Shown here piece by piece: positions 3,665-56,328 of a stretch of DNA of 64,000 nucleotides. The notes under the pieces were generated by a model, which saw nothing but the letters and a program-made list of their open reading frames with translations, had not been told where the DNA came from and did no database searches. The stretch comes from a virus (lineage: Duplodnaviria; Caudoviricetes), in the IMG/VR virus record IMGVR_UViG_3300013121_000005, positions 288,001 to 352,000 of that record. One strand, 5' to 3'. Position 1 is the first letter of the stretch. The number at the start of each line of letters is the position of its first letter. The position numbers and the translations under genes are program-made.

Positions 3665-3934
3665 ATGAGCCTCTGGGTCTGGGTCCTCTTGTGTGTCAAC
3701 CTCCTTATTCTCTTCCTTCTCCTGCATTTCAAGGGGGAGACCCTACGCCTGAAAGCGGAAGTCGAGGAGCTAACCGATAGGGTAAAGGAACTCGAAGAAG
3801 GCGAACCCTATGCAGACGAAGAGGGTGAAGACGGTGAAGACGAACACTATGCAGACGAAGAAGACGAAGGTGAAGACGAAGACGAAGCCCTCATTGAAAA
3901 GAAGCCAACAAGGTCTAGGTTTGATCGGGTCTAA
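3665..3934 (+). CDS. Membrane protein: TM, coiled coil, acidic linker, C-terminal SRFDRV
   Basis: N-terminal TM helix; D/E-rich duplicated segment. Confidence 0.75.
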   Translation: MSLWVWVLLCVNLLILFLLLHFKGETLRLKAEVEELTDRVKELEEGEPYADEEGEDGEDEHYADEEDEGEDEDEALIEKKPTRSRFDRV

Positions 3935-4433
3935 GCCGGGCAACAGACAGCATGTAGGAGGGGTCTTGCAACTCCTTCTCCACTCGATCAATTTCGGCTT
4001 GAAGCGCCGACATCTCCACCTTAATTCGCTCCAGATTGCTTAGATCCAAGAGCCTAATATGACGCAGGTGCTGCTGCCTGTGGAACTCAAGACGCCTGAA
4101 GGCTTCTTCAACGGTTTCAACTACGTTCGAGGAATAAGTCTTGAAGACTCGCCCGGTCGAACAGCTAATGTGTGCCTTGAACTTTTCGCCCTGCCATAGA
4201 AGCTTGCGGTGAATGAACGCCACAAACAACTTTTGCTGGCCACGCACACACTCCTCGAACTGGCCCGTTTGCTCGATTTCCCAAAGGGCCATATACCTTG
4301 AGCCAGCAGCAAGAACCGGATAGTACCTGTAGACTCTGCTGGCTTCTCGGGACTCCTTGCGACTTTCGCGGATCTCCCTCAGAAAGTCAGACCTATCCTC
4401 TACCGGCGCTCCCACACTTGCTCTGTTTGACAT
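3915..4433 (-). CDS. Hypothetical protein
   Basis: 172 aa ORF with class I promoter-like motif upstream. Confidence 0.65.
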   Translation of the reverse strand: MSNRASVGAPVEDRSDFLREIRESRKESREASRVYRYYPVLAAGSRYMALWEIEQTGQFEECVRGQQKLFVAFIHRKLLWQGEKFKAHISCSTGRVFKTYSSNVVETVEEAFRRLEFHRQQHLRHIRLLDLSNLERIKVEMSALQAEIDRVEKELQDPSYMLSVARLRPDQT

Positions 4434-4470
4434 CTTTTGTCGGTTAACGCAAGAGGAAGGCTCCTTTCAA

Positions 4471-5070
4471 CTAGCGGGTCTCGTTTTTTCTTCGTTCTTT
4501 CAACATGTCTAGCCAAGGATCAATCTGGGCGAACATGTCCCACCTGCAAATCTCCAGGACCAGCAGGTCTTTCCAGCAGTCTGTCCTATCCATCTCTTCC
4601 CAGACTCGCCCCCGCCTCTGCCACTCGGAGATGGAGACCCCCGGAGGCATGTCGGTTTGGTTCTGGTAGTGAAAGTCCCGGACCCGTTCATCTTTCGCGA
4701 GGAAATCAAGAACGTCTTTCATCGTCCAGTCGCAGTAGGGGATGAGGTAAATCTTCCCCTTATAGTGGCGGAACCCCACACTCACGTCGAAGTTGAACGG
4801 ACTCCGGAAGGAGGAAGCGCTGTTTTCTTGGTACCCCTTGCGGACAGAATCACGAGCAACCTCGAAACGAGCACGCCATTCATCCCCGTATCTTTCCAAG
4901 TTCTCTTGGAAAGGCTTCGAGGTAACCTCCACCTCAGGGATGAACGCTTCGTACATTTTCCTTAGGTTAGCTTGAACATTCTTGGTACCTTTCACCCGAA
5001 TGTCTCGGACAAGAGGCCACAGATCACGAGTCCTTGTGAGAACATACGCCGTCCAAATTTTGACACTCAT
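4471..5070 (-). CDS. Hypothetical protein
   Basis: 199 aa ORF, MSVKIW...DFHYQNQTD. Confidence 0.75.
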   Translation of the reverse strand: MSVKIWTAYVLTRTRDLWPLVRDIRVKGTKNVQANLRKMYEAFIPEVEVTSKPFQENLERYGDEWRARFEVARDSVRKGYQENSASSFRSPFNFDVSVGFRHYKGKIYLIPYCDWTMKDVLDFLAKDERVRDFHYQNQTDMPPGVSISEWQRRGRVWEEMDRTDCWKDLLVLEICRWDMFAQIDPWLDMLKERRKNETR

Positions 5071-5079
5071 GAATGGGGC

Positions 5080-5379
5080 CTACTTCGAGAGAAGGTCATA
5101 CCTAGATTTTGGAGGCTTTGGCTTACTTAGTTCTTCTATGCGCTTATCTACGTACTTAAGCCGAGCTATAATCTTGGAATACAGGCCACTTCTTGAGCAC
5201 TGTACCAGCCAGGCTTGGTAACGTTTGGTCCGATTGACCCTCTTAACACCTTTTAGGGGAGGGGAGGGCAAGGGGCTGAAGATTGGCCATGCCTTTCCGT
5301 AGGGGTCAAATCCAAACTTACATTCCAAGGCAATCAGAATGCTGGCCCGCTTTGTCTGCCAGTAGACTAGAGGCTTCAT
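5080..5379 (-). CDS. Hypothetical protein ending KSRYDLLSK
   Basis: ORF in operon-like run. Confidence 0.65.
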   Translation of the reverse strand: MKPLVYWQTKRASILIALECKFGFDPYGKAWPIFSPLPSPPLKGVKRVNRTKRYQAWLVQCSRSGLYSKIIARLKYVDKRIEELSKPKPPKSRYDLLSK

Positions 5380-5385
5380 GTTCTC

Positions 5386-5736
5386 TCAAAGAGAAGGACA
5401 CCGGCAAGCCACATCGAACCAACGCTCTGGGTTCTCTTGCCACTTGCTCCAGCGGAAGTCAAAGGAGCTGCGGTCCTTCTTGTGGTACGCTTTCGTGTTG
5501 ATGGCTTGGAGTCCCGACTCCATCCAAGGGAAGGGCTTGCCCTGGCAGACCTGGGCGCTCTGGTAGAGGACCCAGAGGTACCCGTACAGCGTCCGTAGTT
5601 CGAGCCGGGCACGAGCCCTCTCGATCTCCGGCCGGATGGTTTCGTAGGCTTCCGTAAGGGCCGCAGCAGCCTTGGTCCGATTGCCCTCACAGGCGTACTT
5701 CTCCGCTTGAGCACATAGTTCGTAGAGCACACGCAT
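5386..5736 (-). CDS. Hypothetical protein
   Basis: Strong SD (AGGAGG) upstream of the ATG. Confidence 0.7.
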   Translation of the reverse strand: MRVLYELCAQAEKYACEGNRTKAAAALTEAYETIRPEIERARARLELRTLYGYLWVLYQSAQVCQGKPFPWMESGLQAINTKAYHKKDRSSFDFRWSKWQENPERWFDVACRCPSL

Positions 5737-5831
5737 GATACCTCCTATGGGACGTACTTCCCGTCTCTCAGGGATAAACCCAGGGAGGGGGCGATCCGAT
5801 AAGGGGGCTAATGTCGTCCGTCATTCTCGAA

Positions 5832-54848: not shown

Positions 54849-54870
54849 GCCTACCTAAACGAAGGAGCCT

Positions 54871-55278
54871 TTATTCCTTCAACTCAACTTTATGGGCTAC
54901 TCCGACGGACAGCTCGTACCTTACGTTCAGGTTAAATTCATGAACCGTCCCTTTCTCATCGATCACTCTGACCATGAGGTGGTCTGGGATTTTGTAACCC
55001 TCGCTTTTGATGGTAGCTGCGGACAAAAAGGCCCAAGTCTTGTAGTTGGGGTTGATCTTCTTGATTAATGCAGCCAGCATCTCTTTTGCATACAGCTCGG
55101 CTGCAAAAGCGGGGCTCTCTTGGAACCAGTTTTCCGGGATGTCCCATGGGCAGGAGTCCCTGTTGAAAACCTCCCCCTCAGCGGGTTCCGACTCGTACGC
55201 TGGGCACCAGAGTTTAGCTATCCTTGTGAGTACCATAACTACTTTCAGGGTTGAAAGATTGAGAATTCGTTCGTCCAC
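54871..55278 (-). CDS. Hypothetical protein
   Basis: ORF in run; start uncertain. Confidence 0.55.
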   Translation of the reverse strand: MDERILNLSTLKVVMVLTRIAKLWCPAYESEPAEGEVFNRDSCPWDIPENWFQESPAFAAELYAKEMLAALIKKINPNYKTWAFLSAATIKSEGYKIPDHLMVRVIDEKGTVHEFNLNVRYELSVGVAHKVELKE

Positions 55279-55313
55279 TAGGTGTAAGCCCTAAGAGGCT
55301 AAGGGAGGTTCAG

Positions 55314-55553
55314 ATGAGCTACTACTACACCCTTTACAACCAGGAAGTGATCAAGCAAATCAAGGCAGACCCCGAGCTGAGCTTGGTGTTCTTCGCAATG
55401 TACCCCCCGTACGATGATGAGCTGGACCCCCTCCATCGACCTAACTGGGCAGCAATCCGAGAGGCTGAGTATCTAGGGCAGGCCAAGGTAGCTCTTAAGA
55501 GGGCTAAGACCTGGGCCAGTGAGCGGGCTAAGAAGGAGGGATCTTTGGGTTGA
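55314..55553 (+). CDS. Hypothetical protein
   Basis: SD GGAGG. Confidence 0.65.
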   Translation: MSYYYTLYNQEVIKQIKADPELSLVFFAMYPPYDDELDPLHRPNWAAIREAEYLGQAKVALKRAKTWASERAKKEGSLG

Positions 55554-55592
55554 GTTTGGTTGAGAAGGCATTCCTTTAATCGTTGAGGTAGT

Positions 55593-55784
55593 ATGAGTAA
55601 CGAAGCCCGTCGAGTTCGAGAGTTGGCCCGAATCGAAGCCTACCATCGCGGTCCTGCTGTCAAGTATGATGACGTAGCTCGGCACTGCCCGAGCCACTGG
55701 TCCCCAAGGTTCATCGCCAACCAATGCGAATTGGCAGGGTACCCCGTGTGGTCGAGTGCCCCGGATGCAGCTCTGCGGGGCTAG
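55593..55784 (+). CDS. Hypothetical protein
   Basis: Class I promoter. Confidence 0.6.
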   Translation: MSNEARRVRELARIEAYHRGPAVKYDDVARHCPSHWSPRFIANQCELAGYPVWSSAPDAALRG

Positions 55785-55815
55785 TATCCACTATACCCTC
55801 GGTCGTTGGGGAATC

Positions 55816-56328
55816 ATGAACACTCGGTACATCGCCCGCCACGTCAACTACTTCCTCGGCAAGCCGGGCCACGATTTCGCCCTGGTCTTTGAGGACCGAG
55901 TGGTCGACATTCAGGACCGGAGTTACTCGAAGCTCCTCTCCGAGCCTGGGTTGGTGGGGCTCATCGAGTCGGCCCCCGCCATGAAGACCCGCTTCGAGCG
56001 GCTCACCCAGACGACCTGGAGGGGCAGCGTCCCCCTCCTGACAACGGACGGGATGAGGTACATCCCGTCCGTTGGGACGAAAGAGGAGGCTGCTGAGGCA
56101 TGCCGAAAAGAAGCTCGTCTTCTGAGAGAGGAAGCTGACCGAGAGGCCACGGATCCAGCCTATGCCTTGGAGAAGGCTCTCAAGAACCACGATTGGTTCG
56201 CCCACTACTCCGACGACAACAATGTGTGCCTCGCTTCTGAGCAACACTGGCAGAAAATTGAGGGGCTCAAATTGAAAGTCCCGAAGGATGTAGCTGAGGC
56301 TCTAGTCAACCAGTACCAACCTAAGTAG
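55816..56328 (+). CDS. Hypothetical two-part protein
   Basis: Internal KTRFERL; C-terminal HDWFAHYSDD module. Confidence 0.7.
   Translation: MNTRYIARHVNYFLGKPGHDFALVFEDRVVDIQDRSYSKLLSEPGLVGLIESAPAMKTRFERLTQTTWRGSVPLLTTDGMRYIPSVGTKEEAAEACRKEARLLREEADREATDPAYALEKALKNHDWFAHYSDDNNVCLASEQHWQKIEGLKLKVPKDVAEALVNQYQPK

Follow-up and report, generated by a model that had tools for sequence, protein, structure and literature searches.

The closest described counterpart of the peptide examined here is the XB peptide of the adaptor SspB, a tail on a flexible linker that ClpX's zinc-binding domain binds at any chain position (PMC12373786; PDB 2DS8, cited therein). Other peptides that invite comparison are the ssrA degron, with its non-polar terminal ...LAA, and the clamp-binding peptides (QL[SD]LF, the PIP box, and the tails of T4/RB69 gp43, gp33 and gp55). 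To these can be added the C-terminal tip of SSB, the encapsulin cargo-loading peptides, the T4 capsid-targeting sequence, and the short C-terminal helices of the ESCRT-III MIMs and the Cdc48/p97 cofactor motifs, which are read by the N-domain of classic-clade AAA ATPases. Here we describe a short C-terminal tag carried by many proteins of a huge phage, the IMG/VR virus record IMGVR_UViG_3300013121_000005 (Duplodnaviria; Caudoviricetes; 363,484 bp, estimated 76% complete; hereafter G000). The analysis follows up an original prediction, made from the letters of a 64,000-nucleotide stretch of this record (bases 288001–352000, hereafter the window), that a tag of the form [ST]-R-[FY]-[DE]-[RKL]-[LIV] is shared by about a dozen unrelated proteins and serves as a docking or addressing peptide for one hub protein. 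In the jumbo-phage literature searched, phage ClpX and the MoxR-vWA pair are mentioned and a shared C-terminal tag of this kind was not found.

The tag sits at the C-terminal end of its carriers, and these are unrelated proteins. All eight C-terminal peptides of the original prediction are present in a six-frame scan (Table 1), although the position numbers given for them mark gene boundaries rather than the motifs. The tag is indeed found on many proteins, but the count is eight C-terminal copies in the window and 17–18 genome-wide, namely 17 carriers and one truncated form. The pattern as predicted, used as the strict regular expression, has 16 six-frame matches in the whole record, of which 14 lie in open reading frames (ORFs) of ≥80 codons, and 10 of these 14 are ≤10 residues from the stop.

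Enrichment was assessed by counting matches in the final 16 residues (tail) and in the remainder (body) of every protein, with four carriers that had been missed by the gene caller (c03, c05, c11 and c15) entered manually. Across the whole genome, the strict expression gives 10 tail matches versus 3 among 100,798 body positions (69-fold, p = 1e-15), and no tail matches were found in shuffled proteins. The part of the genome outside the window constitutes independent data, unseen when the prediction was made; here there are 6 tail versus 2 body matches (72-fold, p = 4e-10), in a test that is not fully blind because the hand-added c03 and c05 lie in this part. The strong tail excess persists without all four hand-added carriers. 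The positional enrichment that the original prediction had proposed as its own check is thus borne out both genome-wide and outside the window. A refined expression yields 17 tail versus 13 body matches, and a pattern-free tail-versus-body motif search recovers RF.R, RY.LL and TRF in G000. All carriers of G000 lie at 209–337 kb, where small genes and genes for replication and nucleotide metabolism run on both strands, and none lies in the 40–205 kb single-strand block of large genes that is the presumed virion module.

The overall form of the tag is a Pro/Lys-rich linker followed by [ST]-R-[FY]-[DES]-[RKL]-[LIV] and a short, often acidic tail. In an alignment of 17 copies, Thr or Ser at position -1 and Arg are each present in 16, whereas F/Y and D/E/S are present in all 17; the last two positions are occupied by R/K/L/H and then by L/I/V/F (17/17). 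Proline reaches its maximum at -3 to -7, amid basic residues, acidic residues are frequent after the motif, and 0–10 residues separate the motif from the stop. An [ST]-x-x-[DE] pattern that follows a proline is typical of helix caps. Among the G000 tags, Tyr pairs with Leu at +3 and Phe with Arg or Lys (Fisher p = 0.008), which suggests that two sub-forms of the tag exist in this genome. The two sub-forms, R-Y-[DE]-L-L and R-F-[DES]-[RK]-[LIV], occur together only in G000, and the relatives have the F-plus-basic form alone.

The codons that encode the motif indicate what has been selected. The Arg codons vary among copies (CGG, CGT, AGA, AGG), as do the Ser, Thr and Leu codons. Since the codons differ between copies, selection acts on the peptide, and a DNA-level repeat is ruled out. 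In all 17 carrier ORFs the codon score of the own frame is far above that of the shifted frames; for c10 the values are 0.19 in frame versus -0.25 and -0.72 shifted, and even c15, which has the lowest score of the set (-0.03), is above both of its shifted frames. The original prediction saw no other visible similarity among the carriers, and the bodies are indeed unrelated (best pairwise E = 0.04). The only Pfam matches in the carriers are two below threshold, one to a topoisomerase-type zinc ribbon and one to Nif11. Hidden paralogy of the carriers is ruled out by the absence of any body pair below E = 0.04 and of Pfam domains above threshold. Two carriers possess an N-terminal membrane-type helix, and in c10 such a helix is followed by a coiled coil, an acidic run and the tag.

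Conservation of the tag among orthologues was examined outside the window, as the two window carriers searched for (c12 and c15) are ORFans that have no homologue besides themselves among 5.8 billion proteins, and the relatives compared contain no homologue of any of the eight window carriers. The family of carrier c03 comprises 188 homologues among 1.84 billion representatives, as identified with a profile of three orthologues. The strict tag core is present in the last 22 residues of 84 of the 138 full-length family members, and a wider form in 108 of the 138; the bodies of the same family contain 0.004 strict matches per window of sequence. An acidic pair lies within the last 12 residues of 132 of the 138 members, and in a looser form, T-x-[YF]-[DE]-[RH]-[LI]-[LM]-acidic, the ending is common to nearly the whole family. 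The family consensus runs from FGTxxQR through a basic, Pro-rich linker of variable length to T-x-[YF]-D-[RH]-L-L-x-D-D, and conservation is higher in the tag columns (0.56) than in the body (0.45) or the linker (0.35). The motif is therefore kept among orthologues, and the lack of conservation that had been named as grounds for dismissing the tag is not seen. The c03 body is predicted to form a KOW/Tudor-like barrel followed by a beta-sandwich, although the structure matches are weak (Z about 6–7).

A close relative of G000 was not found among deposited phages. Cultured phages are only distant from G000 in a 772-amino acid (aa) conserved protein (35% identity), whereas the same protein is 43–64% identical in 27 uncultured contigs, several of which are complete at 300–512 kb. 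Four complete genomes and two incomplete records were compared in full, together with the first 140 kb of G018; the sizes are 407 kb for G001, 512 kb for G002, 436 kb for G003, 312 kb for G004 and 362 kb for G005, and the G004 and G023 records are 67–68% complete. Back-translated tag patterns matched only relatives of G002, or nothing, and one further search for related loci returned known loci only.

The tag is present in these relatives in lineage-specific versions. In G002, the form P-T-R-F-E-R-I-L-x-D-D-D is found on about 35–45 genes, and the pattern-free search gives 41 tail versus 3 body occurrences of RFER (p = 3e-68). G001 has 11–22 tagged genes (RF.R, 22 tail versus 20 body), G023 has three or four tags, and G004 has about 18 tails of the form [FYW][DE][RHK]L[LM]-acidic that lack the T-R start, for example ...YDKLMDEDLF. 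No such tag was found in the sister clade formed by G003 and G005, in which 79–124 (G003) and 22–43 (G005) proteins carry an exact C-terminal V-x-x-V-[MQH]-E-S. The tags of a lineage thus change together, the outcome to be expected from co-evolution with a single reader. The tag is kept in eight TRF–TRF homologue pairs with bodies that are 30–55% identical, and it is also gained or lost on conserved bodies, as in an RlaP-family enzyme that is tagged in G001 only. One homologous pair, alike in a shared domain, has a TRF-type tag in G002 and a V-M-E-S tag in G003 (E = 6e-6); this single case hints that the two tags may be equivalent. The larger carriers in the relatives match only RlaP, DUF2793 and, below threshold, a double-zinc-ribbon family. 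A tagged protein of 250–270 aa, which is the truncated form in G000, contains about 70 residues that match, at 50–58% identity, a section of a conserved 290-aa core protein encoded by these phages, and its 94-aa homologue in G003 has the V-M-E-S tag instead.

The tag is consequently portable, conserved, lineage-specific and selected at the peptide level. These properties sustain the proposal of a docking or addressing peptide for one hub, and the tag is probably a docking label for a common partner. As to the identity of that partner, a phage AAA+ ATPase, one of the hubs originally suggested, is the best lead, at which we arrive by inference; none of the tests run points to two of the others, RNA polymerase and a compartment importer. 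In the explanation that we favor, each carrier would consist of a variable, fast-evolving body, a Pro/Lys-rich flexible tether, and a short capped helix, [ST]-R-[FY]-[DES]-x-[LIV], in many cases followed by an acidic run, that would plug into one common reader. The reader would be one of the phage's own AAA+ unfoldases, with the ClpX homologue as the favored candidate. The carriers would act like SspB, with the body either holding something, probably a host protein, or being the substrate itself, and the tail would tether the carrier to the unfoldase, with remodeling or degradation by way of host ClpP as the outcome. A phage AAA+ machine is a plausible but tentative choice of partner; that the partner is ClpX specifically is a guess unlikely to be right when taken by itself, placed slightly ahead of the other AAA+ candidates.

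Several features of the SspB system have parallels in the phage. As in SspB, a variable body is joined through a long flexible linker to a short C-terminal peptide, and the linkers preceding the phage tag are of the type expected from SspB, being Pro/Lys-rich and, in the c03 family, the least conserved segment. With the XB sequence, L-R-V-V-K, the phage R-I-L or R-L-L has only one element in common, a basic residue followed by two aliphatics. The varying distance of the tag from the chain end (0–10 residues) is similar to the position-independence of XB, and a phage ClpX with an intact zinc-binding domain is available as the putative reader. Unlike SspB, which is a single adaptor, the phage has dozens of unrelated carriers, and unlike XB, the phage tag has an aromatic and acidic start, a helix-cap pattern and an acidic tail.

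G000 encodes five AAA+ candidates, one ClpX homologue with an intein and four classic-clade AAA proteins with unassigned N-domains. In the phage ClpX the N-domain is a complete C4 zinc-binding domain (CxxC...CxxC) that aligns to bacterial ClpX, and the LGF loop that docks ClpP is retained. Its intein (Hint plus LAGLIDADG) sits within the Walker A loop. ClpX's zinc-binding domain occurs in every one of the six related records with the tag type of G000, and all five AAA+ genes are absent or barely recognizable in G003 and G005, which lack this tag. A phage ClpP was not found in G000 or in the complete genomes G001 and G002; the phage ClpX would therefore need host ClpP or act alone. The four classic-clade proteins offer a parallel to Vps4 and Cdc48/p97. 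One of them, of 1099 aa, has an intein of its own along with an N-terminal region of 470 aa and unassigned fold; it was found in G001 and G002 and in neither G004 nor G023. The spacing of the phage tag (aromatic, acidic, basic, aliphatic, aliphatic) is unlike that of MIM1, (D/E)xxLxxRLxxL(K/R), and an MIT-like domain was not detected.

The genomic distribution of ClpX is compatible with this assignment and does not single it out. Of 24 related records, six have both the ClpX zinc-binding domain and the c03 family, which lie 6–13 kb apart, and all of the other 18 have neither; this co-occurrence is not independent evidence, because the 24 records belong to one clade and the genes to one conserved block. 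A presence/absence profile intended to identify the reader was matched by 84 genes at first and still by 35–43 after two more genomes were added; profiling of this kind cannot pick the reader, because too many genes fit and the G004 and G023 records are incomplete. A number of observations weigh against ClpX as the reader. The presence pattern of ClpX and c03 is common to at least 43 further genes, a 519-aa AAA protein in the same block among them. G023 has ClpX and yet only three or four tags, and in the first 140 kb of G018 a ClpX gene and a tagged c03-family gene are present with no other tagged gene found. The two carriers with membrane helices fit recruitment better than degradation. XB takes the form of an extended strand when bound to the zinc-binding domain, whereas the phage tag has a helix-capping pattern. 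Finally, the structure model suggests that the c03 tail may pack against the c03 body or a neighboring subunit.

The alternatives differ in where they place the partner. The tag could mimic a host motif and dock its carriers on a host hub. This hub could be a protease or unfoldase (ClpXP, Lon or FtsH), for which the tag would serve as degron or timer, but also the beta sliding clamp, the proteins that bind the SSB tail, or RNA polymerase, and the variation among lineages would track the host rather than the phage. We regard this as rather unlikely, though several observations speak for it. The hydrophobic-then-acidic consensus, with an aromatic residue within the acidic run in 71 of the 138 c03-family tails, resembles the tails of SSB and phage SSB, and a separate 83-aa protein of the window ends in DSDDIPF. 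However, no tag ends as the SSB tip does, in an acidic run followed by I-P-F, so that the free P-F carboxylate is missing. The phage encodes three clamp-loader subunits of bacterial type (delta, delta-prime and gamma/tau), and a sliding clamp was not found with Pfam PF00712, PF02767, PF02768 or PF09116, so the phage may use the host clamp. Clamp-binding peptides are also the classic example of a short hydrophobic and acidic peptide, frequently C-terminal, through which many proteins share one hub. The tag is nevertheless a poor fit to the clamp motif, QL[SD]LF or QxxLxF with hydrophobic residues at positions 4 and 5, as Arg replaces Gln in 16 of the 17 copies and position 4 is Arg or Lys in 9 of the 17, and the carriers, by their number and as ORFans, do not look like parts of a replisome. 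As for RNA polymerase, the KOW/Tudor-like barrel predicted for c03 is of the kind that binds this enzyme in UvrD and PcrA (Z 6–7). A degron of the ssrA type is disfavored by the floating position of the tag, by the mostly acidic residues that follow the motif, and by the lack of a non-polar ...LAA end.

If the partner were instead part of the virion, the tag would be a packaging signal through which cargo docks on the inner capsid, scaffold or portal and is injected with the DNA. Here, too, the architecture is the same, as one short terminal peptide on a flexible linker directs several unrelated proteins to a single capsid-related assembly in encapsulin cargo loading and in T4 capsid targeting, and both ClpX and ClpP are present in the virions of phage G (PMC12484599). 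The T4 signal, however, is N-terminal and cleaved off, and a cleavage site is not evident here; the carriers of G000 lie far from the presumed virion block, two of them are predicted to be membrane-anchored, and 40 or more different packaged proteins (in G002) seems many. Packaging is for these reasons an improbable explanation. Less probable still is that the c03-family protein is itself the hub, with the tail held in its own or a neighbor's groove and the other tagged proteins competing for that groove to build a scaffold or condensate. This idea draws on the AlphaFold model, in which the c03 tail is not disordered (predicted local distance difference test score, pLDDT, 73–84), on the presence of the family in every record with this type of tag and its absence from the others, and on the tag being among the best-conserved stretches of the family. 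The high model confidence may be due simply to conservation of the helix, the fold is matched only weakly (Z about 7), and many other genes share the same presence pattern. That the copies have no common function, being due to chance, hidden paralogy or a DNA element at gene ends, could be suspected of a short motif defined post hoc from few copies. This suspicion is scarcely credible and is refuted by the enrichment, codon, body-similarity and family-conservation tests, that is, by the tail excess outside the window, the recovery of the motif without a preset pattern in four genomes, the differing codons, the lack of any body pair below E = 0.04 and the conservation of the tag over 138 family members.

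The preferred reading, docking on a phage AAA+ unfoldase, can be extended to the sister clade. A MoxR-type AAA gene and a DUF2201 metallopeptidase-vWA gene lie inside the V-M-E-S arrays of G003 and G005. The MoxR-vWA pair of jumbo phages has been described by Iyer et al., who proposed a role in virion assembly (PMC7824862). It is conceivable, though speculative and rather unlikely, that huge phages run their own protein-addressing code, in which lineage-specific C-terminal tags on many small, fast-evolving accessory proteins would each be read by a dedicated phage AAA+ machine and the carriers would be interchangeable adaptors. The machine would be ClpX or a classic-clade AAA in the present lineage and the pair of MoxR and vWA-metallopeptidase in the sister clade, and the tagged adaptors would bring captured host proteins for unfolding or destruction. 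Such a code, if true, would be the bacterial-virus counterpart of the hijacking of ubiquitin ligases by viruses.

The tag is also of practical interest. Small ORFans without known function account for 4%–20% of the genes in these huge phages, and the shared tag would join them in one pathway. The peptide, at 10–12 residues, is usable as bait for the reader, and the lineage variants provide a natural specificity series for tag recognition. If the reader is a phage unfoldase, the carriers become candidate adaptors or timed substrates in host takeover, and the tag–reader pair could be put to use in bacteria as a compact, orthogonal module for tethering or degradation.

Table 1. Tagged genes, internal motif copies, candidate readers and neighboring features. 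Coordinates are those of the window unless a genome is named; C-terminal ends run up to the stop codon.
Feature	Coordinates (strand)	Tag or motif position	C-terminal end or remark
Carrier c10, 89 aa	3665..3934 (+)	3914-3931	...KKPTRSRFDRV; no Pfam match
Carrier c11, 99 aa	5080..5379 (-)	5089-5106	...KPKPPKSRYDLLSK; no Pfam match
Carrier c12, 152-166 aa, ORFan	6263..6763 (-)	6272-6289	...SPRSRFSLLDD
Carrier c13, 100 aa	26398..26700 (-)	26401-26418	...RDPTRFDKI
Carrier c14, 155 aa	46612..47079 (+)	47044-47061	...EKTRFDRLLLEDT
Carrier c15, 150 aa, Cys-rich (zinc-finger-like), ORFan	47079..47531 (+)	47511-47528	...KLRDRFERL
Carrier c16, 131 aa, variant tag	48088..48483 (+)	48433-48450	...QSKFERLLLDNGVPCSP
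Carrier c17, 98 aa, variant tag	48503..48799 (+)	48758-48775	...CRTRFELFLQAEDRS
YTRYHRL, possible carrier	21514..21882 (+)	21802-21819	20 residues before stop
Internal KTRFERL	55816..56328 (+)	55987-56004	residues 58-63; six-frame scan
Internal KSRFHDL	27929..28510 (+)	28316-28333	six-frame scan
Internal LSRFER	1565..1912 (-)	about 1745-1762	without hydrophobic last position
Carrier c03	G000 228564-229064		outside window
Tagged 250-270-aa protein	G000 283931-284686 (-); G001 342822-343634; G002 220848-221597		truncated form in G000, ends in SRFDL
ClpX homologue	G000 215735-218077		outside window; start 215735
Other AAA genes	G000 205787-207346; 265092-266249; 277664-278866		outside window
Classic-clade AAA ATPase, 1099 aa	2..1537 (-); G000 286238-289537		N-terminal half in window
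Clamp-loader subunits	G000 47720-49696; 69708-71222		
MoxR-type AAA and DUF2201 metallopeptidase-vWA gene	G003 L093:5892-7001; L093:9900-11387		inside V-M-E-S arrays
Helical-repeat protein, 199 aa	G000 14907-15506 (-)		clade-specific
Clade-specific block	G000 40635-45927		
SSB-tip-like protein, 83 aa, Cys/His-rich	38731-38982 (+)		...PVPVDSDDIPF

In addition to the C-terminal tags, the original prediction listed four internal copies of the motif and placed them at module junctions. These copies are present in the sequence, but orthologues of the four were not detectable in the six relatives, and the copies are indistinguishable from chance; their placing at module junctions is thus not supported. 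The LSRFER copy is most likely a chance occurrence, whereas YTRYHRL, which is near the end of its gene, may be a real tag with an extension. A Met directly before KTRFERL was considered as a start and rejected in favor of the upstream gene start given in Table 1.

Three further features of these phages were noted. A 199-aa helical-repeat protein has 33 homologues, some of which are named TPR, and the family has an invariant internal K-R-F-F-E-R-A that is tag-like; AlphaFold gives a confident helical repeat for this protein, for which no clear structural match was found. A clade-specific block encodes a vWA protein, an R2K-clade ATP-grasp protein of the peptide-ligase type and a GroEL-like chaperonin, and the ATP-grasp protein could in principle modify acidic protein tails. 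Lastly, the 83-aa protein of the window has no Pfam match and no homologue in the six relatives, and its C-terminus reproduces almost exactly the tip of bacterial SSB, a resemblance through which it could act as a decoy or competitor for host SSB-binding proteins.

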